DNA from: an uncultured Verrucomicrobiota bacterium
GTDB lineage: Bacteria; Verrucomicrobiota; Verrucomicrobiia; CAZIPW01
Assembly (NCBI GenBank): GCA_964541905.1
Contig: CAZIRU010000001.1
Location: 77,490-141,489 of the forward strand
Length of the DNA: 64,000 bases
Direction of reading: 5' to 3'
The notes below the pieces were generated by a model. That model was not told the DNA's origin. It ran no database searches and saw nothing but the letters and a program-made list of their open reading frames with translations. This document shows, in pieces, positions 14,381-53,448 of this stretch. The translations under genes were made by a program, and so were the position numbers. Numbering within the stretch: the first letter of the stretch is position 1; every line of letters begins with the position of its first letter.

Positions 14381-14478
14381 AGGCTAGAGGAGGGCATTCG
14401 GCAAGGCTTCCACCACTTGCACAAGCGTGCATTATACCGAAAATCAACGCGAATGTAAAGGGCGCACCATCGTAGCTT

Positions 14479-15456
14479 TTACGGATGCGGGCTTGTCCGC
14501 GAAACCGTCCAGCCCTTGCCCGTGGCGATCGAGTCAGTAGCGGCAGTCGTTGCGTCTCCGCCCACATAAAGCGTTCCACCACTCGTCGTTGGCAACGCAT
14601 TGTAAAGCCCATTAAGATTCGTCGCGTTGGCATATAGGTTCGTCCACTGATGGACATTCAGCAGCGTAAAGCCCGAGCATGTCGCGGGGAAGGAAATCGA
14701 AGTGATAGTGTTTCCCTGCAAGCGGGCCTCCTTGAGGGCCGTACAGCCGTTAAAGTTCATTGTCGTCAGGCCGTTACTCCAACAGTCTATATTCTCAAGC
14801 GCCGTGCAAGTACTTGCGTTCAAAGAGGTGACGGAAGTCCCCGAAAACGAAAGAATCTTGAGCGCTGCGCAACCGGTAATCGTTAGAGAAGTTAGCGACG
14901 ATTGCCCGTCGCAATAAAGTTCCTCCAATAGCAAACAGCCGCTTACATTCACGGAGGTCAAGGCGTTGTTGTAGCAGTAAACCGTCTCTAAAGCCGTGCA
15001 GCCGGTCAAGTTGAGCGTCTGCAGGGCATAGTTGCCAGTGCAAAGCACATAATAAAGGTTTGAGCAGCCCGTACAATCTATGGACGTCACTGTGGTTGAG
15101 TTTCGGCAATCAAGAGATTCCAAATTGGAACAATTTGTCAAATTCAGTTCTGTAAAAGCATTTTCTGAACAGACCAAGCTCGCAAGCGCGGTACACCCGC
15201 TAAGATCAAGTTCTGCAATCTGGTTGCCGCCGCAATATAGCGTCGTTAAAGCTGTTCGATTGCTCAACTCCAACGATGAAAGCTCATTGTTTTGACAAGT
15301 GACGGCTTTCAAGTTCATACAACTATCTAAGCTCAAGTCACTTATATTGTTGTTGTCACAATAAAGCTCCTCCAGAGCGGTGCAGCCACTCACGTTGAGT
15401 GTTTCGAGGGTGTTTTGATAACAAATCACATATGTCAGGCTGGTCAATTTGCTCAA
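14479..15456 (-). CDS. Leucine-rich-repeat protein of about 14 LRR units (consensus L..L.C..N.LT.LDLSGCTAL). It probably continues upstream to 15732.
   Basis: Regular 22-24 aa repeats. The ORF-track start is TTG, and the repeat pattern and the open frame continue 92 codons further upstream with no start codon. Confidence 0.7.
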   Translation of the reverse strand: MSKLTSLTYVICYQNTLETLNVSGCTALEELYCDNNNISDLSLDSCMNLKAVTCQNNELSSLELSNRTALTTLYCGGNQIAELDLSGCTALASLVCSENAFTELNLTNCSNLESLDCRNSTTVTSIDCTGCSNLYYVLCTGNYALQTLNLTGCTALETVYCYNNALTSVNVSGCLLLEELYCDGQSSLTSLTITGCAALKILSFSGTSVTSLNASTCTALENIDCWSNGLTTMNFNGCTALKEARLQGNTITSISFPATCSGFTLLNVHQWTNLYANATNLNGLYNALPTTSGGTLYVGGDATTAATDSIATGKGWTVSRTSPHP

Positions 15457-15732
15457 GTTGAGCGCCGTTGCATTGGCGGGATGTGAATTTCCCCGTGCAT
15501 CTATGTAAGTAATATTGCCTTCGGGAGTGCTATCGGTTGCACTCTTGCAGGACCAAAAGGTCGCGTAGCGCCCCGTTATGCCACTGGACCAGTTCCAAGA
15601 GAAAATCGATGGCTCCTCGGCGTTCTCCGATTGAATGGCCCAATAACCAGTTGAACTTAAAGCGCTTATATAAATGCCTTGATCATCATTGACGGTAATG
15701 GAGCCGACTCCCGCAGCCAGATTTTCACCTTC

Positions 15733-16182
15733 CTACTCCTCTTCTTCGCCTCCAGCGGCCGCCGCCTCGGCTTGATAACCGTTATAACCGCTAAAACGGA
15801 AGGTCGCGTAGTTGCCCACGACCTGCAGACTCCGCGCAGGAATCGTCAGCGAGTTGTTCAAAAACTGGTGCACTTGCCCCGTCCAGTTGATCGGCGTTTT
15901 GAGCTGCCGGAGTACGCGGCCGATGGAGGCCCCGATGGTCAGCCCCGCCGTGCCGCCCCCTTGGGTTTTATAGCGCGTCAGCGCCTCGTTGAGCGTCGAA
16001 AGCATCACCTTTTTGGCGGTAGTTCTGGTCTCGTTCACATAGCCGACGATAAAAAATATAGCCGCCGAAACGATCATCGCAATGATCGCAACACTCATCA
16101 TAAGCTCGATCATCGTAAACGCACGCCCGTGGCGCTTTACATCGCTCCCCGTCGTCAGGCAAGTATTAAACATATACTTCAC
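15733..16182 (-). CDS. Protein with a prepilin-type N-terminal cleavage/methylation domain (type IV pilin or pseudopilin-like).
   Basis: KRHGRAFTMIELMMSVAIIAMIVS is a class III signal with a hydrophobic helix. It stops at TAG 15733-15735, in the same frame as the LRR ORF. Confidence 0.75.
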   Translation of the reverse strand: MKYMFNTCLTTGSDVKRHGRAFTMIELMMSVAIIAMIVSAAIFFIVGYVNETRTTAKKVMLSTLNEALTRYKTQGGGTAGLTIGASIGRVLRQLKTPINWTGQVHQFLNNSLTIPARSLQVVGNYATFRFSGYNGYQAEAAAAGGEEEE

Positions 16183-16289: not shown

Positions 16290-17777
16290 ATGCCCACGCG
16301 CGCCTCTTCGGTCAAAGTCACCCGCACTCAGGTCTCTTCGCGCCAAGCATCTTCGAGGAACGGCGCCTCGACGCGCGAGGCTATCTCCAAGATAGCCTCC
16401 GACGCCGGAGCCGATACTTCCGCGTTGGGCCGCACGCTCCCGCACAATCTCGAGGCCGAGGCGGGGCTTTTGGCGTGCCTTTTGATGGATGGCGGTCAGG
16501 AAATCATCGCCGATTGCATTGCCGAACGCCTCAATGCCGAAGCCTTCTTTCATCCCAATCACCAAATCATCTTTCAGGCCATCCTTAATCTTTACTCCAA
16601 CAACAAACCGGCCGATCTGGTGCTTTTAACCGAAGAACTCAAGTCAATGGGCCAGCTCGAGCAAGTTGGCGGGGTAGGGGCGCTTTCGGATTTTACGCGG
16701 CTGATCGAAACAACTACCCATGCCCATCATTGGCTGCAAGTCGTTCGTGATACGTATCTTCTGCGAAAACTCATCCGCACCACCACCAACGTAGCCGAGC
16801 GCGCCTATAGCTATGACGGCGAACTGCCCACCTTCATCGAAGAGGTCGAGCAGACGATTTTTTCGATCTCCGAAGAGCGCTTGAGCGATGGCGGACACCC
16901 TGTCGGCGAGGCCGTTGATCGAGCCAGCCTCCAAATTCAGCAGCTTATTCAGGGCCGCGGCACCATTCAGGGGCTCGTGACCGGCTTTACCGATATTGAC
17001 CGGATGACCTTCGGACTCCACCCGCAGGAGATGATTGTCCTGGCCGCACGTCCCTCGGTGGGTAAGACCTCGTTTGCGCTTAATGTCGCCGAGAATGTCG
17101 TTTTGCCCGCGCGCGCCGACCGCGCCGCCACACCCACCCTTTTCTTTTCGCTCGAAATGGGCGCCGACCAGCTGGCCATGCGGCTTTTGTGCTCGCATGC
17201 GCGCGTGCGGATGGGCCGGCTGCGCGACGGCTTTATCGACGGAGGCGAGCAAAAATCGCTCGCCCAATCTGCGGCGGCCCTCAAGGCGGCCCCTTTGTGG
17301 ATTGACGATTCAGGTTATCTTACCATCCTCGAACTGCGCGCCAAGGCCCGCCGAATGCACGCCAAAAACAAGGTGGGGCTTATCGTTATCGATTATTTGC
17401 AGCTCATCTCCGGTACCGATCCGCGCGTCCCCCGCGAACAACAGATCGCTGAAATTTCTCGCGGCATCAAGGCTATGGCCAAGGAACTTCATATCCCCGT
17501 CATCGTGCTTTCCCAGCTTAACCGCGAGAGCGAGCGCGAAAAGCGTCGTCCGCGCATCTCCGACTTGAGAGAGTCGGGCTCCATCGAACAGGATGCCGAC
17601 GTGGTAATGCTCCTTTCGCGCAAGGTGGATGACGGCGAAGGCGAGTTTCAGGGTGAGGATAACTCTCGCGAGCTTATCATCGCCAAACAGCGCAATGGCC
17701 CGATCGGCACCGTGCCGCTGACGTTCCTGCCAGACCTCACGCGTTTCGAGAACTTTGCACAAACGACTGGCGAATAG
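16290..17777 (+). CDS. dnaB: Replicative DNA helicase DnaB.
   Basis: LPHNLEAEAGLL, Walker A ARPSVGKTSFALN, and the IVIDYLQL and SQLNRE motifs. There is an N-terminal Ser/Arg-rich extension of about 50 aa. Confidence 0.9.
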   Translation: MPTRASSVKVTRTQVSSRQASSRNGASTREAISKIASDAGADTSALGRTLPHNLEAEAGLLACLLMDGGQEIIADCIAERLNAEAFFHPNHQIIFQAILNLYSNNKPADLVLLTEELKSMGQLEQVGGVGALSDFTRLIETTTHAHHWLQVVRDTYLLRKLIRTTTNVAERAYSYDGELPTFIEEVEQTIFSISEERLSDGGHPVGEAVDRASLQIQQLIQGRGTIQGLVTGFTDIDRMTFGLHPQEMIVLAARPSVGKTSFALNVAENVVLPARADRAATPTLFFSLEMGADQLAMRLLCSHARVRMGRLRDGFIDGGEQKSLAQSAAALKAAPLWIDDSGYLTILELRAKARRMHAKNKVGLIVIDYLQLISGTDPRVPREQQIAEISRGIKAMAKELHIPVIVLSQLNRESEREKRRPRISDLRESGSIEQDADVVMLLSRKVDDGEGEFQGEDNSRELIIAKQRNGPIGTVPLTFLPDLTRFENFAQTTGE

Positions 17778-17829: not shown

Positions 17830-18714
17830 ATGTCGCTTTTCGACAAGCCCCAGTATACAAAGGTTCTTATCAAAAAGAAGGACCTGCCGCGCAATCTTTA
17901 CACGCGCTGCCCCATCTCTGGAGAAATCGTTTATACCAAGGAAATAGAGAAAAACTACTGGATTGTTCCCAAAAGCGGCTACCACTTTCCGCTGGGCGCC
18001 GACCGCAGAATTGAACTGCTTATCGACAAAGACACTTGGAAGGGTTTTGACGACAATCTGGTGTCCTCGGATCCACTTAAATTCAAGGGACTGGCTACCT
18101 ATGCCAGCAAAATCAAAGATTACACAGCAAAAACCGGCATGAATGACGCCGTTTTGGCAGGCGTTGGCGAGCTTGACGGGATGGAAATCAGCCTCGCGGT
18201 GATGGATTTCCGTTTCCTCGGGGGCAGCATGGGAAGTGTGGTCGGCGAAATTATTACCCGCGCTATCGAACGGGCGATTGAAAAGGAAATACCCATGGTC
18301 ATTGTCTGCAACTCGGGTGGAGCACGCATGTATGAAGGGATTCTTTCACTTATGCAAATGGCCAAAACCTCTGCAGCTCTTGCGCGCCTCGATGATAAGC
18401 GTCTGCCCTATGTGGCGGTATTGACTGACCCGACCACCGCAGGAGTTTCGGCAAGTTTTGCCACATTAGGCGATGTTATTATTGCTGAACCGGGAGCGAT
18501 GGTCGGCTTTGCGGGCCCCCGCGTGATTAAAGAAACGACCAACGAAGAGCTGCCTGAAGGCTTTCAAACTGCGGAATTTTTGCTTGATAAGGGCCTTGTC
18601 GACGCCATTGTACCTCGTTTGGAAATGAAAGCATGGATTAGCCACTATCTTCACGCGACACACAAGGGCCGCCACCCTGAAGAGCCCAAGAGCGAGGCCA
18701 AGGCAGAGGGGTAG
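17830..18714 (+). CDS. accD: Acetyl-CoA carboxylase carboxyltransferase beta subunit AccD.
   Basis: GGSMGSVVGE and a conserved CT-beta core. The N-terminal zinc-finger cysteines are mostly absent. Confidence 0.9.
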   Translation: MSLFDKPQYTKVLIKKKDLPRNLYTRCPISGEIVYTKEIEKNYWIVPKSGYHFPLGADRRIELLIDKDTWKGFDDNLVSSDPLKFKGLATYASKIKDYTAKTGMNDAVLAGVGELDGMEISLAVMDFRFLGGSMGSVVGEIITRAIERAIEKEIPMVIVCNSGGARMYEGILSLMQMAKTSAALARLDDKRLPYVAVLTDPTTAGVSASFATLGDVIIAEPGAMVGFAGPRVIKETTNEELPEGFQTAEFLLDKGLVDAIVPRLEMKAWISHYLHATHKGRHPEEPKSEAKAEG

Positions 18715-33372: not shown

Positions 33373-34173
33373 ATGCTGCATGACCCCAAAAAGCTGCTTC
33401 TGGTGGCTGGCCCTTCGCTTTTGGAAAACAAGCTTGCGGTCTTTAAAGTGGCAGAGGCCCTCAAAGCTCTTTCGCAAAAACATGCGGAAAGCTTGACGGT
33501 CGTTTTTCGCAGCTCATTTGACAAACCCCACCGCGGCACGCTCTTTAGCGCGAGGGGAAGCGGCCTCGAAGAAGGGCTGCGGCTGCTGACGGAAGTCAAA
33601 GATCAACTGGAGCTAAAAATCTCGACGGATGTACACGAGCGGCAACAGATTGAGCCCGCCTCGCTTGTGTGCGACGTACTGCAGATCCCTTCGCTTTTGT
33701 GCCGGCAAAATGACCTGATCACCGACGCGGCCAAAAGCGGATGCGTGGTCAATCTGCGCAAAGGCGTGGCGCTCTCGCCGATTGACGCTCTGCAGCTCGC
33801 CGAAAAAGTCGAGTGTGCGCACGCAACCGAATTTTGGATGACCGAACGCGGAAGTGCGTTTGGCTATAACCAACTAATGTGTGATATGCGGATCTTTACC
33901 GCGCTCAAACATACGGATTGTCCGGTCCTCTTTGATGCTTCGATCACAACCGAGTTGCCCGAAGGCGTGGCCCAGCGGCTAAAAAACAGCGCTCGGGCCT
34001 TTTCCCTGCCGCTGGCAAAGGCGGCGTTGGCGGCCGGAGCTGCAGGGCTTTATTTGGATGTGCATCCCGAGCCGGAAAACGCTTTGGTCGATAATGCAAC
34101 ACAGCTGCCTCTTAAGGAGCTGGACGGGTTTGTCGCACAGGCGCTGGAGCTTTGGCAAAAATTGCACGCCTAG
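33373..34173 (+). CDS. kdsA: 3-deoxy-8-phosphooctulonate (Kdo-8-P) synthase.
   Basis: LLVAGPSLLENK... and the (beta/alpha)8 KDO8PS signature. 266 aa. Confidence 0.9.
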   Translation: MLHDPKKLLLVAGPSLLENKLAVFKVAEALKALSQKHAESLTVVFRSSFDKPHRGTLFSARGSGLEEGLRLLTEVKDQLELKISTDVHERQQIEPASLVCDVLQIPSLLCRQNDLITDAAKSGCVVNLRKGVALSPIDALQLAEKVECAHATEFWMTERGSAFGYNQLMCDMRIFTALKHTDCPVLFDASITTELPEGVAQRLKNSARAFSLPLAKAALAAGAAGLYLDVHPEPENALVDNATQLPLKELDGFVAQALELWQKLHA

Positions 34174-35309
34174 GAAGGTTGGGTCGGCTTCTGCAACGTA
34201 TCAAAAAGGAGAGCCTCAAGGCGTTCGGCCACCGTTGCTGGCTGGAAGCGCTTTTCATAACTCGGACGGGCAGCCGCACGCAAATCGGAGAGCGCGGAAG
34301 GCGAAAGGGCCGCAAAACGCTCGAACAGCTCCCGCGTACCTTTGAGGGTGTCGGCGGCTACGAGCGCGCAACCGTCGGCAGCAACGTCGCGAGCGAGCGC
34401 AACCTTATCGGAGAGCAAAACGGGGGTCCCCATCGAAAGTGCCTCGGCCACGACCATGCCAAAATTTTCTTGGTGCGAGGGTAAAATCAAAGCCTGAGCC
34501 GCAGCAAGCGCGCCCCACTTGACAGGGCCTTCCAAAAGCCCCGTCCAAACGACCTTTTTGGAAGCGGCGAGATGGCGCAAGCGGGTGTAATAAAAGGTGC
34601 ACTCCGGAGGCCCTGCCATAACGAGAGCCGTTGAGGGAGGAAGCGCCCTGAGGAGCAGATGTGGGGCTTTTTTGGGATGAAAACGCGAAAGATAGAGGAA
34701 GAAGGGCGTTTGCGCGAGGGAAGGGAAGGCTGCATAAAAAGCCTCGCGGGCCTCGGCGGCTGAAACGGGAGAGCTGCGCAGGCCAAGGCCGACGATCAGC
34801 TGGCGGCGTGGCGCAAAGAAAGGGAAGGTGTGCTGGCTGGACTCGAGCTCTGCGGTTGTGGTGTAGAGGAGCGCGGCGGCGTGATTGAGGGTGTGGCGTT
34901 CAAAGAGCAGATAGTAGGCGAGCTTTTTAAGATATTTGAGGGGAAATCGATTGAAATAGCCATCCAGCATGCCATGAGGAAAAAGAAAGTAGGGGATTTG
35001 CCCGCGCAGCGCCCAGCGCGCAAAAGGAGCGGTCGAAAAAAGCCAAAGGCCATTCAAAAAAAGAGCATCTGGCCGCGGAAGGGCGGCCAGTTTGCCATCA
35101 AGGTCGGGGACAAAACCGTGCAAATTTTTGGGCGGACCGAAGGCATGAATTTTGACAAACGGAGGCGCTTCGGCTGGAGGCGCCCCATCGAGGGTAATCA
35201 AATCAACCGCATGGCCGCGTTCGGCAAGCGCTGACGCAAGTTCAAGCGTAGCGGAAGCAACCCCGCCACTTGAGGCATTTAACGTATGTACGACGAAGCT
35301 TAAACGCAT
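34170..35309 (-). CDS. Glycosyltransferase family 1 (GT4-type).
   Basis: The C-terminal GT-B EX7E-like region (ENFGMVVAEALSMGTPVLLS). Confidence 0.8.
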   Translation of the reverse strand: MRLSFVVHTLNASSGGVASATLELASALAERGHAVDLITLDGAPPAEAPPFVKIHAFGPPKNLHGFVPDLDGKLAALPRPDALFLNGLWLFSTAPFARWALRGQIPYFLFPHGMLDGYFNRFPLKYLKKLAYYLLFERHTLNHAAALLYTTTAELESSQHTFPFFAPRRQLIVGLGLRSSPVSAAEAREAFYAAFPSLAQTPFFLYLSRFHPKKAPHLLLRALPPSTALVMAGPPECTFYYTRLRHLAASKKVVWTGLLEGPVKWGALAAAQALILPSHQENFGMVVAEALSMGTPVLLSDKVALARDVAADGCALVAADTLKGTRELFERFAALSPSALSDLRAAARPSYEKRFQPATVAERLEALLFDTLQKPTQPS

Positions 35310-36538
35310 GATTCAAGTGCATTAAGAAGGCTCTCGCGGAAAGCCTCGGGCGTAAAACCTTTAGCAAGAGCCAAACCCTTGGCAATTAGTGCAGCGCGCT
35401 CTTCGAGTGAAGCGTTGAGATAGGCAAGGAGCTTGGGGGCGTTGGCTTGCGCCCAAGTCTCAATTTCGTCTGGGCGGGGCGTCTCGAGGATAACGGAGGC
35501 GCCCGTGGCAAAGCAGGTTTTTAGCGAGGAGTTGTCGGTAATAATAAGGGGCGTGGCGCACGCAAGCGCTTCCAGCGCCGGCCAGCCAAAACCCTCATTG
35601 AAGGAAAGAAGCAGGAAGGCTTCTGCCCCGCAATAAAGTGCCTGCATCTCCGCGTTGGAAACATCTGGAAAAGAATAAACCTCAACGCCACCCTTTTGGG
35701 CAATCGCAAGCTCGCTCGCGTCCATCGCAGTCCCCGCAAAAACAAGAGCCGGTGGAGTCGGGGTTAATTTTTTCAATTCTGCGCACAAATGAACGATCCC
35801 TTCGCGGTTTTTGTACCAAGCCGAAGAACCCATGTAGAGTAAATACGCCCGAGGAAGGACGCCCTTTTTGCGCCAGAGCGCTTCCTGTCGAAGACGCAGC
35901 TCCTCCGGCGGCAGGGGCGCGTAAGGGTAGTTTAGGCAAAGAGGAGCCACGCTAACGCGCGAAGCAAGCTGGGGCAAAAAACGCTTGGCATCAGCGGCTG
36001 TCGCTTCGGAAGGACACACGGCACAAGCGCAATTTCGCAGGCCGGAAAGATTCATCTGCTGGGAAAAACGTTGGCCAAAAGTGCTTTTGGGAAGACCGGC
36101 AAAATCATCCAGCGTCACGCGAAGCGCCGTGAGGTCGCTGATAAACGAACAAACACGGAAACCCGTCAAGGCGGTAGCCAAAAATCCGAGAGACTGATCG
36201 CTTAAGAAAACCACAAAATGGCGTTTTTCCTTTTGCGCTTTCTTGCGCAAAGACGAAAGCTTGATGCGCAAAATAAGCGAAGAAAAAAAGAGCCTCTCGA
36301 AGAGCGCCACCGCACGATGAATTTGGGGAACGCCGAGGGTTAAGTCCCCTAAAAAACTTGGGGGCGTCACGTTTATCACCTCGACGGGAGCTCCCGAGCG
36401 GCCACGGGAAAGCTCTTCGGCCATCAGGGAACACAGCAGCCTAATGCTGCGGAAAGGCTGGTACTCAAAAGGCTCAATCAAGGCGACCGTAAGCGACTTC
36501 ATCGGGTAAAGCATAAACACACGCACAAAATTTTCCAA
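35300..36538 (-). CDS. Glycosyltransferase family 1.
   Basis: GT-B layout with NEGFGWPALEALACATPLIIT. Confidence 0.75.
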   Translation of the reverse strand: MENFVRVFMLYPMKSLTVALIEPFEYQPFRSIRLLCSLMAEELSRGRSGAPVEVINVTPPSFLGDLTLGVPQIHRAVALFERLFFSSLILRIKLSSLRKKAQKEKRHFVVFLSDQSLGFLATALTGFRVCSFISDLTALRVTLDDFAGLPKSTFGQRFSQQMNLSGLRNCACAVCPSEATAADAKRFLPQLASRVSVAPLCLNYPYAPLPPEELRLRQEALWRKKGVLPRAYLLYMGSSAWYKNREGIVHLCAELKKLTPTPPALVFAGTAMDASELAIAQKGGVEVYSFPDVSNAEMQALYCGAEAFLLLSFNEGFGWPALEALACATPLIITDNSSLKTCFATGASVILETPRPDEIETWAQANAPKLLAYLNASLEERAALIAKGLALAKGFTPEAFRESLLNALESCV

Positions 36539-36560
36539 GCTTGGACTGGCGGCCGGAATA

Positions 36561-37877
36561 TTAAAGGGAGCGCATCAATGCACGGAAGAGCGGATGGTCC
36601 TGATAGGCCGGACGCGTTGCCGCCAAAATAAAGCCAGCCCCCAACGAAGCAAAGCCTAAAATCGTCGGCTGACCCCAGCCTCCGCTAAAAACCCACGGCA
36701 GAATTGCGGCGCAAAGAAGCCACGGCGTGGCATTGCCCTGCTGTTTAAGCGCTCGATAGCTCCAATAGAGCAAATAAAAACACAAGGCCACCCGAAGGCC
36801 AATTAGCGCCACCCCCAAAATGAGCCCGCTCTCGCGCAAAAGACGAGTCCACTCCACTTCGCCAAGCGCAAAAACACGCTGGCCCACAAGCAAAGAGGTT
36901 CCCACATTCGTGCCGGCTCCCGTGCCGGCTCCCGTGAAAGAAACGTCGCTAAGAATCCTAAATGGCTCCATCAGCTCGCTATAAATACGCTCGGCAATCC
37001 CCATCGTCGGAGTTCCCATCGTGTCGGCCTCGTCAAAGCGCGCCGCCATCAGCGAGCTTCCCCACTGGAAAAGCGGCGTCAGGCTGGCCAAAAGGCCCAA
37101 CAGCACCACGCTGGAAATAAAAAGAAGACCGCGCTTGACCCGTGAGGGATTGAGAAAGAAAACCAAAACTGCTCCCGCAAGGACTAGAAGGCAGGCAACG
37201 ACGGAACTGCGGCTCAAGGAACATGCCAACGCGAAAAGAAGCGCTATGAATGAAAGAGTGCGGAGAAAACGTGAGCTCTTTTCAAAAAACGCCGAGGCGA
37301 TAAAGGCACACTGAAGCGAAAGGAAAGCTGTTGCGCCAATCACAAAAGAAAACGTGGCCGCCGGACGCACGTGATCGAGGCTGGCTTGCATCTGCGTGTA
37401 AGTGCCACCCACGGCAATATTGAGAATATGCCGCGCGGGCAACATAAACTGCAAAATAATAAGAGCCGCCATCGGCAACGATACCCATAAAAGCGCCTTG
37501 CCAAAAGCGCGCACATCGTCCTGCGAGAAAATTCGAGGGATGATAAAAATAAGCGGCAGATGGAGAAAATTGGCGCGCAACCCGAAGAGCGCCACTAGAA
37601 GATTGCCGTGTCCCCACAAAAGCGCGGAAATAAAAAGCAGCACCGCAAGAATGGCCGAATAGCCGATAAATCCATTTAAAGGGAACTGTCGCCGCGAAGC
37701 CGCCAAAAGGTAAATCAAAAGGACAACCGGATCGCGTATTAGCAGGAGAGGGTTTGAATAGCCCGGCAAAAACCATTTGCGTAAAGCCCCCTCAAACAAG
37801 AGCAGCCAAAAGTAGAGCCAAACCAAACGGCGGGCCCAGAGAATTTCCGGATTGCGGCGAAGAGCGTCAGTTTCCAT
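36561..37877 (-). CDS. O-antigen ligase/polymerase family membrane protein (WaaL/Wzy-like).
   Basis: About 11 TM helices with a large periplasmic loop, as in the O-antigen ligase family. Confidence 0.65.
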   Translation of the reverse strand: METDALRRNPEILWARRLVWLYFWLLLFEGALRKWFLPGYSNPLLLIRDPVVLLIYLLAASRRQFPLNGFIGYSAILAVLLFISALLWGHGNLLVALFGLRANFLHLPLIFIIPRIFSQDDVRAFGKALLWVSLPMAALIILQFMLPARHILNIAVGGTYTQMQASLDHVRPAATFSFVIGATAFLSLQCAFIASAFFEKSSRFLRTLSFIALLFALACSLSRSSVVACLLVLAGAVLVFFLNPSRVKRGLLFISSVVLLGLLASLTPLFQWGSSLMAARFDEADTMGTPTMGIAERIYSELMEPFRILSDVSFTGAGTGAGTNVGTSLLVGQRVFALGEVEWTRLLRESGLILGVALIGLRVALCFYLLYWSYRALKQQGNATPWLLCAAILPWVFSGGWGQPTILGFASLGAGFILAATRPAYQDHPLFRALMRSL

Positions 37878-39051
37878 GTCGGGTAAGCTCTTTTATAAGC
37901 GTTTGCTCATAAACTTGCCAGCTTAACTGTTGCGCGCGCTGATAGGCGGCTTCTTGCATGGCCGCAAGCGCCGTACGGTTTTTGATCATCCAGGTGAGTT
38001 TTTCGGTGATGGCCACCGAAGAGCGAATGGGAACAATAAAGCCCTCATGCCCATCGGTAATAAAATCGGGCGCTGCCGTGTTCGCCGTGGTAATGACGGG
38101 CAACCCGCAACTGAGAGCCTCCGTCAAAACGAGCCCAAAACCTTCGAACAACGAGGGAAAGATCAGAACGTCGTGGCGGCGCATCTGCTCGAGGATTTCG
38201 GAGTGTGGGAGGCTGGCTTTATGCGTGTGCGCTGCAATGGCCTTCTCGAGGGCACCGCAGTGCGAAACGGGGGGGCGCCCAATTACGGTCAGCGTCAAGT
38301 GATTGTGCAGCGAAACAACGGCGTCGAAAAGATAGCTCAAGCCTTTGCGCTGCGTAAGCGCTCCCACGTAGAGAACCTTCAACTTTCCAGAGGTATGCCG
38401 GCGCTCCAGAGGTCCCGGCGGTGGCGCGCCATAGGGGATAACCGAAAGGGTTTGCTTAGGCGAAATGAGTCCGGCAAGCGTATGGGCCGTAAAAGACGAG
38501 GGGACAAAGATGCGGTCGGCCATCGCCAGCTCAACGTCTTTGCGGACCAGTTTCTTTTCGGAATCGCGCAAGCCTGTAAGTGTGGGCGCCCACGCAGGAT
38601 TGAGGAGCGCCTCATCACGAAAAAGCTGCTGGGCGGCCTTGTGATGGCCGATGGGCAGCTCGTAGAAAGTTTGCAAAGACAGCTTTTTGGCGGCGAGAAA
38701 GGTCTGGGAGGCCCCATCTTCGTAGCAATATACCCCCTTGAGTTTCCCGTCGCGAGCCAAGCTGGGCAAATCGCGCGCCAACGCCGCATCCAACCGGCGG
38801 TACACCTCGTCTATGGAAGGCCCCACCTTGCCAGGCAGCAAGAGCCTCATCAGCTCGCCCAAAGGATGGGGGCAGATTTTTGAATAGGAGATGGGATAGC
38901 TGCGGCGTGCCGGAAGCGTTCCGAAAAGATTACCCAGCCAACGAGGCCAAGCCAGCGTCGTGTAAAAACTTTGCAGAAGCCCAGCTGCGTCAAGCGCCGC
39001 AAGCGCATGGCGCACGTTGGGATTGCCGGTAGGGTGAGAAAGAATCAGCAT
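37867..39051 (-). CDS. Glycosyltransferase family 1 (GT4).
   Basis: FEGFGLVLTEALSCGLPVITT is the EX7E motif. Confidence 0.8.
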   Translation of the reverse strand: MLILSHPTGNPNVRHALAALDAAGLLQSFYTTLAWPRWLGNLFGTLPARRSYPISYSKICPHPLGELMRLLLPGKVGPSIDEVYRRLDAALARDLPSLARDGKLKGVYCYEDGASQTFLAAKKLSLQTFYELPIGHHKAAQQLFRDEALLNPAWAPTLTGLRDSEKKLVRKDVELAMADRIFVPSSFTAHTLAGLISPKQTLSVIPYGAPPPGPLERRHTSGKLKVLYVGALTQRKGLSYLFDAVVSLHNHLTLTVIGRPPVSHCGALEKAIAAHTHKASLPHSEILEQMRRHDVLIFPSLFEGFGLVLTEALSCGLPVITTANTAAPDFITDGHEGFIVPIRSSVAITEKLTWMIKNRTALAAMQEAAYQRAQQLSWQVYEQTLIKELTRHGN

Positions 39052-39070
39052 GAGAGAAAATTATAGCGGT

Positions 39071-40159
39071 TTATTTTATTTGCGAGCGAGAAGCTTCGAG
39101 ATCTTTCATAAAAGAACGTGCAATCTCTGGCAACAGCATGGGCGACGGCATAGCAATGGTTTCTTGAAGCAACGCGGGGGTTAGTTCTCGAAAAACACCT
39201 TGCGGAAGGGGTTCCTTCTTCGATATGCCGTCGTCCGAGAGCAGAAGAACAGGCAAGCCGTGCTCGCGCGCAGCGGCAATAGCCCCGCTTTTTTGCCAAA
39301 ATGCCGGAGAATAGCCGGAAAGAAAAATATCCAGAGAAGAAAGATAGTAGGAAGCTTCGCGCATCGACATGAAGCCCAACTGTTCCACCTGCAACCGCCC
39401 GCGATACTTCTGAGCAAGCCTCTGCCAACGCACGACAGCTGCATTGGAAAGAGAGCCCCCGGAAAGCAGCGTCAGCTCAAGACCTGTTTGGGACTGTATC
39501 TTTGCACAACTTTCAAAGAAAGGCTCCAGCGGCGTTGCGGCCGAAATGGAGCCAAAAAAGCCCAAGCGGCGGTGATTTCCGCGCACAGGTTTTCGCGAGA
39601 CTGACTCGACAGGAATATTGCCGAACAGCGGAAGCAGTCGGGGGGCAAAACCCTCGATTTTGAGAGTCTCGGCATAAAAAGGAAGCGCCACATGCAAACA
39701 ACAAGGCTTGAGCGCGCGGAAAAGCGAAAGAATAAGGCGCTTTTGCAAGAGCGGCCCCAAAATGCGATATTTGAGTGGTTCTCCACGCCGATTAAACACC
39801 CATAGCTCGTGCGCAAAAATATGAACGGGGGCCAACTGTACAAGGCCGCGAAGTTCCTGCTGAAGGGAAAAGGGGAAGCCTCGCGCTTCAAAGGCAAAAG
39901 GCACAAACTGGAGCGAAATGAAATCGGGTGCAAACCCCGAAAGAAAGTGGCGCAAATGCGCGCGCTTGGCGCTTAGGGGAAGGTGGCGAGGCAACCGCAG
40001 AGAATCCTCGGAGAAAACAGGTGCCCCCGAGCGCTCCGAAAGAGAAATAAAACGAGACTCTACGCCCATGGGCTTAAGCGCCTCGGCCAACCGCAATGTA
40101 TAATCCGCAACACCGTCATGCTCGCGCGAAAGAGACCCTGTTATAAAGAGAATATTCAT
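39071..40159 (-). CDS. Glycosyltransferase (GT-B type).
   Basis: N-terminal MNILFITGS... and the C-terminal LPVLLLSDDG region. The start overlaps the wzt stop. Confidence 0.55.
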   Translation of the reverse strand: MNILFITGSLSREHDGVADYTLRLAEALKPMGVESRFISLSERSGAPVFSEDSLRLPRHLPLSAKRAHLRHFLSGFAPDFISLQFVPFAFEARGFPFSLQQELRGLVQLAPVHIFAHELWVFNRRGEPLKYRILGPLLQKRLILSLFRALKPCCLHVALPFYAETLKIEGFAPRLLPLFGNIPVESVSRKPVRGNHRRLGFFGSISAATPLEPFFESCAKIQSQTGLELTLLSGGSLSNAAVVRWQRLAQKYRGRLQVEQLGFMSMREASYYLSSLDIFLSGYSPAFWQKSGAIAAAREHGLPVLLLSDDGISKKEPLPQGVFRELTPALLQETIAMPSPMLLPEIARSFMKDLEASRSQIK

Positions 40160-41394
40160 CGCAGCGTCCATTCGGCAGGAATCAAAAGCGGCCCATCCGC
40201 TGAAAGGTAGCGCACCGCGCGGCCGAAGAAAAGATGCGGGCGGATATTAAACTCAAAAACCGATGACAATTCATCCACAACGACATCGTCCCGCCGCAGC
40301 TCAAACGACACCGTATAGGGTCCGGGCACTAGACTGGGAAGCGTAAATTCACTGCGGAGCGTAAACTTATCTCCGGTGACTTCAAAATCTTCCATTGCAG
40401 CTTGGGTGCGGAGCGCGAAAAGAGTCGAAGAGCCCGCACGCGCAAAACGCAAAACGAGGTTGAGATGATTGGCAGAACCACAAAGCGCACCATCGATTTC
40501 GATCGCCACACGCTCACCGGTTTCAAAGTCGTGCGGACGAGAGCCGTCGGGCCGCAACATCCTCAACCGCCGCAAGACGCACTCGCGCCCCGCCGTACGT
40601 TTGAAATTATCCAGCGCCACCCCATCGGCCATTTCTTTTGCGACGGCTGCGTGTTGGTAGCGCTCCAGAACATCTTCCAGCGGGCCCCACATCGCTTGAT
40701 GGCCGTTTTCGAGCAAAAGCCCCTTCTGGCAGAAACCCTGCAATAGCGCTGGATTGTGACTGACAAAGACAACCGCACGTCCGGCACGGCCCACCTCGCC
40801 CATTTTGTCGAGGCATTTTTTTTGGAAACGCTGGTCGCCCACCGCCAACACTTCATCCACGATCAATAGCTCCGTTTGCAGGTGCGCCGCGACGGCAAAA
40901 GCCAGTCGCACATACATCCCCGAAGAATAACGTTTGACCGGGGTATCGAGAAATTCTTCGACCTCGGCGAAGTCAACAATTGCGTCAAAGTTTTTGAGAA
41001 TCTCCACGCGGCTCATCCCCAAAAGAGCGCCGTTAAGAAAGATATTTTCGCGGCCCGTCAATTCGGGATGAAAACCGGTCCCCACCTCTAAAAGAGACCC
41101 CACGCGCCCGCGTAAGATCATACGACCATCCGTTGGCAAGGTCACGCGGCTGATGACTTTAAGCAAGGTGCTCTTGCCAGCGCCGTTACGCCCAATCAGG
41201 GCCAGAGTCTCTCCAGCGTTAAGCGTAAAATTCAGATCCTTGAGAGCCCAGAATTCCTTGAGACTCTCATTGCCAAAAAATGAGAGCGGGTTTCGAAAAA
41301 AACGCTCCACTACATAGCGCGCGCCTCGATCGGCGCTTCGGCCGAGCCAAAAACGCTTTGAAATATTTTCGACTTCCAGTAGGGGTTCGCTCAT
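40156..41394 (-). CDS. wzt: Polysaccharide/O-antigen ABC exporter ATP-binding protein (Wzt/TagH-like) with a C-terminal substrate-binding extension.
   Basis: GRNGAGKSTLLK Walker A, the LSGGQ-like SSGMYVRLAF, and an extra C-terminal domain of about 150 aa. Confidence 0.85.
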   Translation of the reverse strand: MSEPLLEVENISKRFWLGRSADRGARYVVERFFRNPLSFFGNESLKEFWALKDLNFTLNAGETLALIGRNGAGKSTLLKVISRVTLPTDGRMILRGRVGSLLEVGTGFHPELTGRENIFLNGALLGMSRVEILKNFDAIVDFAEVEEFLDTPVKRYSSGMYVRLAFAVAAHLQTELLIVDEVLAVGDQRFQKKCLDKMGEVGRAGRAVVFVSHNPALLQGFCQKGLLLENGHQAMWGPLEDVLERYQHAAVAKEMADGVALDNFKRTAGRECVLRRLRMLRPDGSRPHDFETGERVAIEIDGALCGSANHLNLVLRFARAGSSTLFALRTQAAMEDFEVTGDKFTLRSEFTLPSLVPGPYTVSFELRRDDVVVDELSSVFEFNIRPHLFFGRAVRYLSADGPLLIPAEWTLR

Positions 41395-42200
41395 ATTTCA
41401 TCCGCCATGGAGGTTTCGGAGCGCAGAAAAAGAGCGACTCCAAGAAAAAAGAACAAAGTGGAAATAACCATGCACCAGAGCAATGCCTGCAGCGGAAAAA
41501 CCATTTCCGGCAAAACCGCCCAGCGCATCCCCTCAATAACGCCTACCAATGGATTGAGCATAAAGACCGCGCGGAAAGCCTCCGGCACAACCGCCATCGC
41601 ATAACCAACCGGAGTAATAAACATTCCAAACTGAACCGCAAACGGCAGCAAAAATCGCAAGTCGCGGTAGCGCACCAAGAGCGCTGCCACTACTAGCATC
41701 GGCCCCAAAGTCGCATATGCGCCTAGCAAAACCCAAATCGGCAAGGTAAAAAGGCGAAAACCCCATGCGCCCCCGGCCAAGGGAATAGCCGCCAAAAGCA
41801 AAAGTAAATTGAGCGCCAAGTCAACAAAGGCCACCCATAGACTTGAGATGGGGATAATCATTCGGGGAAAATACAATTTTGTCACCAAAGGAATATTCCC
41901 CAGCAAACTTGTGCCGCCCGTTTGCAGACCAAATGTAAAAAGCTGCCAAGGGATCATCGCCGCATAAACCGAAAGGAAACTCGAACCCTCCAACCCCGCC
42001 ACACGACCAAAAACAAAGGAAAGGGCCCCCACGGTCAAAAGGGGCACCAGAAATGCCCACAACACCCCTGCAACGGTCTGTTTGTAGCGCACCGACAGAT
42101 CGCGCCCAGCCAGAAAGTAGAGCAGCTCGCCATACGCGCGCAGGTCCGCCAAATAACGCGGCAAAGAAAGACGGGGGGTGATAACGGTCACACGTTGCAT
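41391..42200 (-). CDS. wzm: ABC-2 type polysaccharide exporter permease (Wzm).
   Basis: Six TM helices. It is 4-bp translationally coupled to wzt. Confidence 0.8.
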   Translation of the reverse strand: MQRVTVITPRLSLPRYLADLRAYGELLYFLAGRDLSVRYKQTVAGVLWAFLVPLLTVGALSFVFGRVAGLEGSSFLSVYAAMIPWQLFTFGLQTGGTSLLGNIPLVTKLYFPRMIIPISSLWVAFVDLALNLLLLLAAIPLAGGAWGFRLFTLPIWVLLGAYATLGPMLVVAALLVRYRDLRFLLPFAVQFGMFITPVGYAMAVVPEAFRAVFMLNPLVGVIEGMRWAVLPEMVFPLQALLWCMVISTLFFFLGVALFLRSETSMADEI

Positions 42201-42266
42201 CAGGAGGACTATTATACAACCTTTTTAGGCTTAACAGCCATCCAAAAATGTGAGATTTTATTAGGT

Positions 42267-43676
42267 GTGCTGCACAATCGTAAAGTTGGGATCCTCGCGC
42301 TCTACGGCGCCTGCGTCAGCTTGGGGCTTCCTCTTTGGTTTATGGCCTACTATTTCGCCTACTCGCTTTTGGGAAGCGGGCTGGTCTGGGAGGGGGCCAA
42401 ACTGGAGCTTTACACCGCCTCACTCCTTTTGGGAACGCTTAGCTATTTTGGACATTACCATCGCTTGGGCTATCGTCGGCACGGGGGGCGTTTACTGTCA
42501 GCCGTCCAAGTTGCCGCATTTCAAACCCTTATTGCCGCACTTGTGCTTTTCGGCGTGGCTTTTGTCGTTCATTCCTTGGCGCTCAGCCGCATATTTGTAC
42601 TCTCTTTTTTGGCATTGAGCTGGGTTGGCTTCATTCTTTCCAACTATTTTGGTCCCTCATGGGTCGCGCGAGTGGCGCTTTGGCATGACGCCCCGCTACG
42701 GACTATTTTGATCGGGTCTTCCAAAGCCGCAGCGCACTTGTGGGGCTGGCTGGAAGGGCAAAAGGATATTGGCGTGAATACCATCGGACTGGTTACCGAA
42801 GAGGAAGCCGATAAGGGACTTATCGGATTGCCGCATCTCGGAAAAGCTTGGGAACTCGAAGAGGTACTCAAAACGAACTCTATCGATCAGGTTATCTTAC
42901 TGGAGGGGATGACTTCGACTGAGCGCTCGCGCAACATTTTTCGGCTTTGCCAGCGCAAGGGCGTGCGAATTCTCATTTACAGTTATTGGGAAGATCTTCT
43001 GAATTACCCACTCTGCCCCATTAGTGAAGGAGAGGCGACCTTTTTTACCTTGGGTGAAGAACCGCTCGAAAACATCGTCAACCGGTTGCTAAAACGAACT
43101 TTTGACATCATCGTGTCTGCTGCCGTTTGCGCGCTTGTCCTGCCATTACTACTCCTGTGGGTTATGAGCCGACAGAAAAAAGAAAGCCCCGGGCCTCTTT
43201 TTTTCAAGCAACTGCGCGCCGGCAAAAACGGGCGGCCGTTTGAGGTACTGAAAATTCGCACGATGCATGTGCGCACAAACGATGCAGCAGACGTTCGTCA
43301 AGCGACACAGGGGGATGAGCGGGTTTATCCATTTGGAGAATGGCTGCGCAAAACAAGCCTCGACGAGCTGCCGCAGTTTATCAATGTCTTGCGCGGACAG
43401 ATGAGCGTGGTAGGGCCACGCCCGCATATGCTGGCGCATGACGCGAAGTTTGCGGAGTTTGTGGACGTTTATCGCTCGCGCTTTTTTGTAAAGCCCGGCA
43501 TCACGGGGTTGGCGCAGGTAAATGGCTATCGAGGGGAAATCGAAAACGCCGAGCAGCTCGAAAAAAGAATCAAATATGACATCGAATACATCACCAGCTG
43601 GTCGTTCTGGCTGGATGTGGTCATCGTTTTAAAAACAGCGTGGTTTGTCCTCCGGCCTCAAAAGAAAGCGTACTAA
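42267..43676 (+). CDS. wbaP: Undecaprenyl-phosphate sugar phosphotransferase (WbaP/WcaJ-type initiating transferase).
   Basis: C-terminal bacterial sugar-transferase domain (KRTFDIIVS..., PRPHMLAHD, GITGLAQVNGYRGE). GTG at 42267 is chosen because the first ATG falls inside TM1. Confidence 0.8.
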   Translation: MLHNRKVGILALYGACVSLGLPLWFMAYYFAYSLLGSGLVWEGAKLELYTASLLLGTLSYFGHYHRLGYRRHGGRLLSAVQVAAFQTLIAALVLFGVAFVVHSLALSRIFVLSFLALSWVGFILSNYFGPSWVARVALWHDAPLRTILIGSSKAAAHLWGWLEGQKDIGVNTIGLVTEEEADKGLIGLPHLGKAWELEEVLKTNSIDQVILLEGMTSTERSRNIFRLCQRKGVRILIYSYWEDLLNYPLCPISEGEATFFTLGEEPLENIVNRLLKRTFDIIVSAAVCALVLPLLLLWVMSRQKKESPGPLFFKQLRAGKNGRPFEVLKIRTMHVRTNDAADVRQATQGDERVYPFGEWLRKTSLDELPQFINVLRGQMSVVGPRPHMLAHDAKFAEFVDVYRSRFFVKPGITGLAQVNGYRGEIENAEQLEKRIKYDIEYITSWSFWLDVVIVLKTAWFVLRPQKKAY

Positions 43677-43678
43677 AA

Positions 43679-44986
43679 ATGGCAACCTATCTTTTTTTCA
43701 CACAGGGCGCAGATGCGCAATGGATGGAGTTACTCAAACATTTTGCGGCGCTCCACGACAGCGAAACGCGCCTTCATTCGGCCCTAACCGCCACGCAGGC
43801 TACATCAGCGCTAGGGGGAGAAAAGCCAGCGGTTGTCGTGTGTTTTGAGGATTTCACCCAACGTGTGGCGGTAAAGTACAAGCACGCCTCACGGGCAATT
43901 GTCCATGTGGTGCGTATTCGAAAAACCGGCGAGCAAATCGCAAAAACGGCCGAGAACAAAGCCTTTCACTGCCGCGAGTGCTCGATCAATTTTTTCTATG
44001 ACCGCCAAGGTTACGAAAAAAACTGGGCGTTAAAAAGAGAGCGGCGATTTCTGGCGCTGGACAATCCCTTCTGCCTCGAAAGCCAAAAAGCAAATCGGAA
44101 CGTTCTTTTTTCATATGCGCTTGAAGCGCTCCTTCGGCCTTGCGCGTGCCCGACAAATGAGCAGCTAAAAGAGGATTTTGGCCATATCGAGCTAAGCTAC
44201 GTCACCCATTTTTATTTCAACCAAAAAAGTCCGAAAAGTATTTTTGACTTGCTTGAGACATATGCACGCTACGACCGATCGTTGCGCGAAAAGATTCTTT
44301 TTGTCCTCGTCGATGACGGCTCGAGCGTCGAGTACACCGTACCAGAACTTCCTCTCAATATCTTGTGGCTAAGAATCACTCGGGATATTCCATGGAATCA
44401 GGCCGGCGCGCGCAATCTTGGCATGACCTACGCCAAGTCGGACAAGGTCGTTTTGACGGACATCGATCATATTTTCCCCGAAGAAACCCTGCGCGGTCTA
44501 GTGAAAGCGCGACCCTGCGGGAGACGTTTTTACAAATTCCATCGCAAAACGGACGAAGGAAAGCTCCGTAAGGGACACCCCAATATTTTCTACCTTTCAC
44601 GCGGCCGGTTTTTTGAACTCTTCGGCTACGACGAGGAATTTGGTGGGGCCTATGGCGCGGAAGATTACCGTTTTGTTAAATATCAGAAGGCTTGCGGCTC
44701 GTGGCAGCGCTATTTTCCCAAACGCTATTTCATCCACGAGAACAAAGTTGATCGCGAAAAGTCGTATCACACACTTACCCGCGACTTGAGCCTCAATACG
44801 CCTATCGATTCGCGCAAGCGCGCCGAAATGGAAACTTATGGGCACAAGCTTGGCCACAGCCGAATGTTTTTGAATTTTGAATGGCAACTGGTAAGCAAAC
44901 AGTTTTTAAGGCCTCGCGAAACCCCAAAGATTGATAAGACGTGGAAGTACCTTTCATGGGTGCGGACACTTTTCCCCACCAAATAA
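43679..44986 (+). CDS. Hypothetical protein with a GT-A (family 2-like) glycosyltransferase core.
   Basis: LFVLVDDGSS and TDIDHIF (DxD-like) motifs. Confidence 0.5.
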   Translation: MATYLFFTQGADAQWMELLKHFAALHDSETRLHSALTATQATSALGGEKPAVVVCFEDFTQRVAVKYKHASRAIVHVVRIRKTGEQIAKTAENKAFHCRECSINFFYDRQGYEKNWALKRERRFLALDNPFCLESQKANRNVLFSYALEALLRPCACPTNEQLKEDFGHIELSYVTHFYFNQKSPKSIFDLLETYARYDRSLREKILFVLVDDGSSVEYTVPELPLNILWLRITRDIPWNQAGARNLGMTYAKSDKVVLTDIDHIFPEETLRGLVKARPCGRRFYKFHRKTDEGKLRKGHPNIFYLSRGRFFELFGYDEEFGGAYGAEDYRFVKYQKACGSWQRYFPKRYFIHENKVDREKSYHTLTRDLSLNTPIDSRKRAEMETYGHKLGHSRMFLNFEWQLVSKQFLRPRETPKIDKTWKYLSWVRTLFPTK

Positions 44987-53000: not shown

Positions 53001-53448
53001 TGAGCGCCACTTTCAAGATGGCCGCGAACGTCTCAAGCGGCACCACCTTCTTGTCGCCCGGTATAGGCAATCCGCCTTCGGCCACATGGAAAACGCCTTC
53101 GGTCGTACGGCGATCGCTTTTGGGATTATGCAAAATACCCTGTTTTAAACGATAACTTGTGACTGTCTCGCTCTTGTACTCATCCTGTGTTGCGGGCAAC
53201 GAAAGCGTTCGCGAAAGCCCAAACAAATCCATGTCGAAACACTGGACAGGCAACATCGTTGTATCCGCCCCCAAAATTGATTTCAGATACTCGTTGATGC
53301 GGCCCGCGATGGGGGAGGGCGACGCAAGGGCCTTCAGCTCCTCCAGTCGCGTGCGGATGATCGCCTCAAGCTCAGCTGGCGGCGGCATCCAGTTCTTGCC
53401 CTCTTCGCAATCAAAACCAACTCGTCTCTTATAGTCAAAAGCCATCAC
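50095..53448 (-). CDS. Large conserved hypothetical protein, 1117 aa. A speculative assignment is PPi-type phosphoenolpyruvate carboxykinase-like.
   Basis: Uninterrupted ORF of 3.35 kb. No TM segments or repeats. A P-loop-like STVSGGGKSEISKS resembles the PEPCK kinase-1a loop. The size matches PPi-PEPCK, at about 1100-1150 aa. Product unverified. Confidence 0.7.
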   Translation of the reverse strand: MMAFDYKRRVGFDCEEGKNWMPPPAELEAIIRTRLEELKALASPSPIAGRINEYLKSILGADTTMLPVQCFDMDLFGLSRTLSLPATQDEYKSETVTSYRLKQGILHNPKSDRRTTEGVFHVAEGGLPIPGDKKVVPLETFAAILKVALNAPASFLRLPYTATEAAGASVWASLYLRPMVSPEVPGFAYAKSMETLFLVPGSLVCNLDFVESVFGNAGNPRENNAALDVEHWSGHTGCIILAPHLTCLTKKQVGLPHFDKATERQRRDGMCYKDEKELYNDGKAFKLTSRDECGVIVTVIADNYFGYCKKEVKTQLSYAANLLGMCEEEHAGGALTFAAYDLGEEFSLDEVVHTPEDHNYAEALECLGPLADAHPEGYASDKRYDNIFYVPQNVRFRLYDQSISWSDSLGAAHSIRLKPNTTYVLPSGYKIEMLKPAENRRWRIIGTVAEPCLCHKPSTVSGGGKSEISKSINDACIIGSVFVMDFKSDMEQIDMLLNFDYSTIYRDPVRRTKRHPSILEPKFSLGSVIKLFTHSEEYTDGYNDFIRSIPSHVLEMLLVIKRYYKPSWEADWKKRFSVDLINGMPGHELKYKNARLSTNFLRVGYEPDGAWRTLGTRKDFYPATKIQMEDDITASVVLPARDFSNLPLPENVVGLKFVGNCEYRLFQRPDDAIVRGYDKQAEKDMAGNGNFISNFQPLTKADAQTMVDDAIRFDYFTPAMKELLRAHAESKEGPAFVVSSANPRLVDGAPSKNPRYLQNRPDLLNPRGRYLAEVGMRLSRRLKPASPLYTPVNLIVPGRRNNPPEKGSPALCSYNPIHYMELPELFMEFISSMTGKSPSTTGAGSEGALTKGPFNALLPIIDLNSAFVSALLTQCPTFVTSTAYVGPHYKVNHDISLLIPEVFSRMSVAERDPAFLIKNGHLERCRDFQYNGKNVPASRLGWRMTAQFERVFFGRVFNNPGVVLTPEMLRPELQDKGLFADSVQTITDTHQRVAELYFADGSIELAVPPLKALLTLMARGSYEGATLNDDTFRKLFSLSSMLESRWYQERLEAKQKIDAALWGRHLSSIKRHVEANPAQRGDWEAKLSFCQKKFEEASSPEYLRFLNGTIGAPPKLK

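Follow-up and report, generated by a model that had tools for sequence, protein, structure and literature searches.

A pilin and leucine-rich-repeat gene divided by one in-frame amber codon in an uncultured Verrucomicrobiota bacterium, a probable recent nonsense mutation in a modular-pilin family

Modular type IV pilins such as Streptococcus sanguinis PilB, which carries a vWA module, and PilC, which carries a lectin module, have been described (Raynaud et al. 2021, PMC8179133), and an InterPro census counted more than 1,200 modular pilins in 264 architectures, its Dataset S1 listing, with one protein each, the combinations IPR012902-IPR001611 (leucine-rich repeat, LRR), IPR012902-IPR000408 x2 (RCC1) and IPR012902-IPR001258 x3 (NHL) (PMC8179133). 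CofB and TcpB of type IVb pili and GspK of type II secretion are pilin-fold subunits with extra domains that are thought to sit at the filament tip (PMC8179133). Here we describe a pilin-LRR locus on the minus strand of a 64,000-nucleotide stretch of DNA (contig CAZIRU010000001.1 of assembly GCA_964541905.1, positions 77,490 to 141,489; this whole stretch is hereafter the window) from an uncultured Verrucomicrobiota bacterium, in which a prepilin-type open reading frame (ORF) and an LRR ORF share one frame and are divided by a single TAG. Comparison with relatives suggests that this TAG is a genuine and recent nonsense mutation in a single modular-pilin gene, a reading to which we assign a probability of roughly 0.7.

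On its predicted domain content, the architecture is that of the modular pilins already described: an IPR012902/N_methyl pilin module is followed by a short linker and by a bulky module that is not specific to pilus biology, and three effector types of the census, LRR, RCC1 and NHL, also occur in the family to which the window locus belongs. That family differs from the described modular pilins in having a carrier with a signature of its own, common to more than 100 representatives with swapped effectors, and in being known from sequence alone; the window copy, in addition, is split over two ORFs. CofB, TcpB and GspK resemble the locus as pilin-fold subunits with additional domains, but show no sequence similarity to it past the first helix (alpha1), and their extra domains are not LRRs. 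An earlier note on this DNA had read the locus as encoding a pilus-displayed adhesin, which would fit the modular-pilin concept by analogy (PMC8179133).

The prepilin-type ORF runs from GTG 16182 to the TAG at 15735-15733, with ATG 16173 as the start picked by gene callers. After the TAG come 92 in-frame sense codons (15732-15457) without a single ATG, GTG or TTG, then TTG 15456-15454 and an open frame down to TAA 14481-14479; in all, 417 codons downstream of the TAG remain open, and the read-through product would measure 567 aa (amino acids) from the GTG or 564 aa from the ATG. These coordinates, the shared frame and the 92 start-less codons had been reported in the earlier note, and the sequence, the ORF list and the translation bear them out. 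A random frame would stay open over 92 codons with a calculated probability of about 2% (window GC content 0.53), and chance is not a plausible cause of the open frame, because of this figure and, more decisively, because homologues align across the TAG. Same-frame adjacency on its own is not unusual: another minus-strand pair (57821-58915 and 56597-57748, encoding between them a Peripla_BP_6 protein and a GT4 glycosyltransferase) also has a TAG between its members, the downstream gene starting at a GTG of its own 24 codons past that stop. The remaining same-frame ORF pairs resemble antisense or overlapping frames, and the pilin/LRR case is the only real split gene in the window.

We found that the homologues of this locus span the junction as one ORF, as the earlier proposal of a single gene of about 567 aa split by one amber codon had implied. 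A 288-aa query spanning the TAG retrieved seven uninterrupted proteins (P0001 to P0007) covering 78-94% of its length (E 1.6e-81 to 8e-33; 92% coverage at E 1.6e-81 for P0001), and the closest full-length relative, P0049 (537 aa), aligned end to end at 40% identity (E 7e-118, BLASTP), down to and including the C-terminal ..KGWTVSRT; it comes from run SRR8925774, an accession number close to that of the window's run. In a library of 1.84 billion proteins, with representatives clustered at 50% identity, 34 representatives carried the pilin module and a TFWxC beta/LRR effector in one protein. A further 14 loci from genome and metagenome scans, translated through any stops, showed a single ORF over the junction wherever the contig allowed, three of them (L009-L011) spanning the pilin/LRR junction without interruption. 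At the position of the TAG, the aligned relatives have sense codons, and no intact relative has a stop at the junction; this comparison with relatives had been proposed together with the single-gene reading, and it turned up no positional orthologue. Every homologue of the same effector type is, on these alignments, a single uninterrupted ORF consisting of pilin module, linker, beta domain, LRRs and conserved cap. The relatives thus have both modules on one polypeptide joined by a short linker, as modular pilins do, whereas in the window TAG 15735-15733 stands between them, and by this comparison the window locus is a disrupted member of the family, belonging to it by descent and not as an intact gene.

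The upstream part has the features of a type IV prepilin. Pfam N_methyl matches its residues 18-42 (25.9 bits vs. a cut-off of 21.2) and TIGR02532 its prepilin motif (23 bits vs. a cut-off of 16.3), and the basic leader ..KRHGRA is followed by FTMIELMMSVAIIAMIV, with Glu at +5, as in class III signals; the NCBIfam pseudopilin models GspH, GspG and ComGE score well under their cut-offs for the window protein. The AlphaFold2 (AF2) model of the 146-aa carrier, built on a 140-sequence alignment with a predicted local distance difference test (pLDDT) score of 90.5, predicts an N-terminal helix of about 50 residues (21-70, pLDDT >95), a short helix and a four-stranded sheet, a modelled topology that is the pilin 'lollipop'. 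The long helix is homologous to that of solved pilins: a profile of the carrier family matches alpha1 of the pilins and pseudopilins Geobacter PilA, PAK pilin 1oqw, Neisseria PilE 2hi2, PpdD 6gv9 and GspG 5wda (E 4e-6 to 0.13). A Foldseek search with the head of the model returned no significant match in the PDB, and the fold assignment therefore rests on topology and alpha1 homology. In the profile search the window carrier came top of the family (E 1.1e-62), whose signature is LNDALTRYKTQGG.

Downstream of the carrier, the window linker is acidic, of low complexity and, by alignment, 3 residues longer than that of the relatives, which at the same place is Pro/Thr/Ser-rich (..GTPTSxxP.YG.GVGY..). 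The earlier note had proposed a pilin-like signal and helix, a linker and about 14 LRRs; this order stands, but within the 92 codons the linker takes up only about 20 residues, the remainder being a conserved beta domain of about 80 residues, and the repeats number 12 in full, plus a cap. In the AF2 model of the read-through product, the region from residue 153 on is predicted with pLDDT of about 80-95 as a beta domain (strands at residues 159-242, pLDDT 80-90) and then an LRR solenoid (pLDDT about 90), and the TFWxC beta domain is conserved in the 34 relatives. Pfam LRR_4 matches the downstream part in 6 stretches (E 1e-22). The repeats are 21-22 residues long, most with two Cys, and follow the consensus ~LNLxGCTxLxxLxCxxNxLTx, so that the tandem repeats of 20-29 residues, the LxxLxLxxN/CxL core and, as a prediction, the solenoid expected of an LRR protein are all present. 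The first of them (L241-NLSKLTSLTYVICYQNTLET) begins two codons ahead of the TTG, the codon for L243, in agreement with the observation in the earlier note that the repeat pattern starts before that codon.

The top PDB matches of the LRR model in Foldseek were InlJ, SHOC2, LIC11098 and InlA, the best being InlJ (3bz5, E 4e-8), the cysteine-ladder LRR protein of Listeria monocytogenes. InlJ has similar 21-22-residue repeats with conserved Cys, and NCBIfam internalin_J is the best NCBIfam match of the window LRR region (E 4e-20); however, this match reaches 71.6 bits vs. a cut-off of 1700 and covers the LRR region only, and the window protein, which does not qualify as a class 1 internalin, lacks the internalin N-cap, the Ig-like inter-repeat domain and the LPXTG anchor, its export and anchoring being expected to use the prepilin signal instead.

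The sequence around the stop reads GAA GAA GAG GAG TAG GAA GGT GAA, and since the codon stands in a run of Glu codons, a single change explains it: the simplest lesion is GAG to TAG, a G-to-T transversion of a Glu codon, which would be the direction of the mutation. We found no tandem repeat, homopolymer or slippage-prone sequence at the TAG. Of the columns conserved in at least 90% of the 34 relatives, the window protein keeps 18 of 18 before the TAG and 11 of 13 after it, and one of the two differences after the TAG is also present in the intact P0001. It is because the downstream frame is intact and the conserved residues of the family are kept that we take the mutation to be recent. A Logan contig assembled from run SRR8925805, a digestate metagenome from full-scale biogas plants (PRJNA533495; PMC7842101), matches the window at 100% identity over 8,983 bp, with the same base at the TAG, and the 146-aa product is recorded in the protein collection under both NCBI and Logan sources; the TAG is therefore not specific to one assembler. 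That ATG-start product, called in the Logan assembly, was also the one on record in the exact-product look-ups, which returned no match for the GTG-start pilin or for the TTG-start LRR protein.

Two other members of the family are broken in the linker. At one locus (P0050, 155 aa; L020 229-1135, also L021 and L022), a +1 frameshift at ..CTCTATATCGGGC.. takes ..APTTQMLY into SGVGYMANGG..., followed by LRRs, and the same frameshift is present in three 99.9% identical assemblies (Logan ERR1022686, ENA ERZ27262724 and JGI 3300039462). At the other (L024), the carrier runs into the +1 frame just past ..RFTRYNSF, and the +1 product aligns to the residues of intact relatives from about 139. This second locus is part of an array in which at least four family genes stand in tandem (L024 47-3583), in the order of an LRR-type gene end, the carrier with the +1-frame LRR effector, an intact carrier-LamG gene and a carrier at the contig end; the carriers of the neighbouring paralogues are nearly identical, which could give rise to chimeric assemblies or stem from a cassette-like exchange of effectors. 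Three different lesions within a linker of about 20 codons are suggestive, and we leave them unexplained and do not count them as evidence of recoding: only representatives shorter than 180 aa were opened in the search for linker breaks, and these are necessarily linker breaks, stand-alone modules or contig ends, while assemblers can make false joins where a conserved module meets a variable effector, tandem arrays being especially prone to this. The apparently scrambled C-terminal tails of P0139 and P0147 suggest, moreover, that breaks occur outside the linker too.

Mutation, error and read-through, the three causes named in the earlier note, were the right ones to weigh; a nonsense mutation ranks first among them, and programmed read-through, for which the analysis produced no support, is unlikely. 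If most cells lacked the TAG, which would then be an error of sequencing or of the consensus or else a single allele in a polymorphic population, the intact protein of 564-567 aa would be made after all, and several observations are what one would then expect: the DNA comes from a short-read metagenome of digestate, the reading frame past the TAG is unbroken and keeps 11 of the 13 conserved columns, a single T-to-G change would restore Glu within a Glu run, and the gene is intact in every relative. The NCBI and Logan assemblies nevertheless carry the identical base within 8,983 bp of 100% identity, the site is neither a homopolymer nor a repeat, and consensus substitution errors are rare at normal coverage, and we therefore consider an error or a minority allele unlikely, if still deserving of attention. 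Leaky or programmed amber read-through, which would yield an abundant carrier-only pilin and a few pilin-LRR fusions and so a low stoichiometry of adhesin, would account for a stop placed exactly between carrier and effector modules with both products well formed, for the intact downstream frame, for the existence of module-only relatives and for the interruption of two other family members in the same linker. In the Qbeta coat/A1 and retroviral gag-pol read-through systems, too, a stop divides a self-sufficient structural module from an in-frame C-terminal extension; the window stop differs from these in that it is not conserved in relatives and has no stimulatory structure 3' of it (for the 161 nt at 15760-15600 the fold has z = +0.57, being matched or bettered by 140 of 200 shuffles). 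No intact relative has a stop at the site, the other two interruptions are frameshifts without a recognisable slippery motif and do not share one mechanism with the amber codon, no suppressor tRNA is encoded in the window, TAG is a common genuine stop here, and the clustering in the linker is confounded by the choice of representatives that were opened; read-through is on this balance very improbable. We hold in equally low regard the broader proposal that recoding or reversible interruption favours the linker, so that mostly carrier-only pilin is made and little fusion, the latter through amber read-through in the window and frameshifting in L020-22 and L024; if it were true, such recoding would tune the number of adhesin-bearing subunits that reach the filament, and the three lesions in the linker would be its first hint.

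The view that the locus holds two independent genes, a small pilin followed by an LRR protein translated from TTG 15456 or from a non-canonical CTG 15720, draws on the automatic callers, which annotate a separate 316-aa downstream gene in the Logan contig, on the mechanical ORF list, which gives 325 aa from the TTG, and on a purine run resembling a Shine-Dalgarno (SD) sequence before CTG 15720. A start at the TTG, inside the first LRR, would however leave out the roughly 80 residues of the conserved beta domain and yield a product lacking a signal peptide, whereas all homologues place the domain behind a prepilin signal in one ORF; nor is there an SD-like sequence upstream of TTG 15456. The CTG, which stands five codons past the TAG and is preceded by the purine-rich AGGAGTAGGAAGGTG, was considered as a site of re-initiation and rejected, given that the purines are Glu and Gly codons and that an SD 5-mer is found in 1 of 49 window genes. 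Because this 5-mer lies within 20 nt upstream of only that one of the 49 putative genes, the organism evidently, to judge from its gene starts, initiates translation largely without SD, which weakens any argument from ribosome-binding sites in this window. Two independent genes are in sum a most improbable account. Decoding of the TAG as an amino acid, through a reassigned code, pyrrolysine or another dedicated suppressor, is close to refuted: the single in-frame TAG itself speaks for it, and pyrrolysine-using organisms do occur in anaerobic digesters, but TAG ends 17 of the 57 long ORFs in the window, including dnaB (16290-17777, 495 aa) and accD (17830-18714, 294 aa), and is thus not reassigned, and no tRNA with a CUA anticodon was found within the 64 kb, where ARAGORN and Rfam detected only tRNA-Arg(CCT) and tRNA-His(GTG). 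The use of TAG as a normal stop in dnaB and accD, and the resulting improbability of genome-wide recoding, had been anticipated in the earlier note, as had the value of a search for a suppressor tRNA.

Several points weigh against a recent nonsense mutation and account for the margin that we leave. The two assemblies probably derive from the same read set, and the Logan contig would then give no independent confirmation of the base. That all 417 downstream codons remain open would be expected just as much under continued expression. Frameshifts have broken two other family members in the same linker, and a random one-off mutation does not predict such a recurrence, although ascertainment bias and assembly chimeras can explain it. 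The ancestral codon, finally, is deduced and not observed, since the collections searched held no conspecific genome and no positional orthologue: the closest relative is 40-57% identical and not syntenic, P0049 adjoining fusA and not dnaB and mnmG. The housekeeping proteins of the window are singletons at 90% identity, and the members that the genome scan brought up were all distant and of other effector types, one of them in a metagenome-assembled genome (MAG) of Verrucomicrobiae. That relative and some sub-threshold Verru_Chthon cassette matches are weak hints of taxonomic placement.

If the TAG is a recent nonsense mutation, the ancestral single gene would have encoded a carrier (class III signal, an alpha1 of about 50 residues and a small beta-sheet head), a short linker and an effector made up of the beta domain, 12 InlJ-like cysteine-ladder LRRs and the cap. 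By the architecture of the family and the modular-pilin literature, from which we infer this scheme, the intact protein would follow the export and processing route of a type IV pilin and enter a type 4 filament by way of alpha1, with the LRR module presented outward as a protein-binding adhesin. The amber codon would now stop translation just past a complete carrier, leaving a carrier-only prepilin of 146-149 aa with a short acidic tail, and the 417 codons downstream, which have neither a start codon nor a signal peptide of their own, would for that reason be silent beyond a trace of near-cognate read-through. That the carrier-only product still serves as a functional pilin is plausible from sequence comparison, because natural module-only relatives end at the same place. 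The direction and recency of the mutation, the assembly into filaments, the adhesive role of the LRRs and any residual function of the truncated carrier are all deduced.

The module-only relatives that end at the same point as the window carrier are P0065 and P0165. The first, with the ending ..GYTEETL*, precedes rnhB, and a T2SSF gene lies 1.2 kb downstream; the second precedes dnaE. The P0065 locus (L026 1113-1613, and 2869-3852 for the T2SSF gene, which is of PilC/GspF type; the same as L027) lies on a 25-kb contig from the window's own sample, SRR8925805, with a GC content of 56% vs. 53% in the window, and it may belong to a different organism.

A search with the pilin module on its own gives 108 representatives at E<1e-30, a number that rises to 162 at E<1e-10; their median length is 353 aa. 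Among 140 members, the effectors recognised by Pfam were LRR_4 (34), Laminin_G_3 lectin (16), DUF6242 (7), Gly_rich_2 (4) and NHL (4), with Ig-like, PA14, GLEYA and RCC1-like domains as rarer types. On these profile matches, the family is an uncharacterised subfamily of some 110-160 representatives in which one conserved carrier is joined to interchangeable effector domains. The family genes that we examined stand alone or in mobile contexts and not in pilus operons; P0005, for instance, adjoins TrwC relaxase-like and TraG-like genes (L006 1-9873). By eye only, the copy in the Verrucomicrobiae MAG (L002 6592-11405) lies between two large ORFs resembling tyrosine recombinases and consists of a carrier followed by an apparent NHL-type repeat effector. 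Two diverged carrier-beta-LRR paralogues stand in tandem, about 100 nt apart, on one metagenome contig (L011 54-2308), which indicates that the family expands by local duplication.

The features of the locus are collected in Table 1. It sits between dnaB and mnmG. A near-consensus sigma-70-type promoter on the minus strand (window positions 14431-14459: TTTACA, a 17-nt spacer and TATAAT, with 11 of 12 matches) follows directly on the TAA of the LRR gene, 50 nt upstream of mnmG, which it serves; its placement implies that the pilin-LRR gene ends its own transcription unit. Between the pilin and LRR halves, neither an internal promoter nor a terminator rose above shuffle expectation, the sole strong promoter-like site being the one that serves mnmG, and the 64-kb window holds no second copy of the pilin module and no other prepilin motif, nor did Pfam scans of its ORFs find genes for type 4 filament machinery.

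Table 1. Positions in the window of the parts of the pilin-LRR locus and of its amber codon.
Feature	Position	Strand	Basis
Upstream ORF, prepilin-type carrier module; 149 aa (GTG 16182) or 146 aa (ATG 16173)	15733..16182	-	ORF list
Class III (prepilin) signal and N-methylation motif	16057..16131	-	Pfam N_methyl, TIGR02532
Inter-module linker QAEAAAAGGEEEE*EGENLAA	15712..15774	-	Alignment with relatives
In-frame amber codon TAG within a run of Glu codons	15733..15735	-	Sequence, translation
Predicted conserved beta domain (GVGSITV ... TFWSC ... DSTPEGNIT), without a canonical start codon	15463..15711	-	AF2, conservation
TTG taken as the start of an 'LRR gene' by mechanical ORF calling; encodes Leu243	15454..15456	-	
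Twelve leucine-rich repeats	14653..15462	-	Pfam LRR_4, AF2
C-terminal cap with the family-conserved ending ..DSIATGKGWTVSRT, then TAA	14479..14652	-	Alignment; BLASTP vs. P0049

Elsewhere in the window, the longest ORF (50095-53448, minus strand, 1,117 aa) has no Pfam match at E<1e-4, nor has the 155-aa ORF that follows it, and a protein with DUF2807 (adhesin head GIN domain) is encoded at 53992-54723. A cluster for polysaccharide biosynthesis and export (34170-46918) comprises three GT4 glycosyltransferases, two ORFs without a Pfam match, genes for a Wzt/Wzm-type ABC transporter, a Bac_transf sugar transferase, a GT2 gene and then efflux genes of MacB-like, HlyD and OEP type; judged on its size, the DAHP_synth_1-family gene found at 33373-34173 is KdsA-like. 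The presence of an outer-membrane factor and a KdsA-like gene suggests a diderm.

For annotation, our results mean that the 146-aa 'pilin' and the 316- or 325-aa 'LRR protein' belong together as a single gene, to be marked as disrupted, and that the TTG start is an annotation artefact. The amber codon itself is most likely a fresh pseudogenising mutation or a strain variant, and would be biologically important only if read-through were shown. As a natural case of module grafting onto pilins, the family could be a source of scaffolds for surface display, or could inform work on how uncultured bacteria of digesters and soils adhere.

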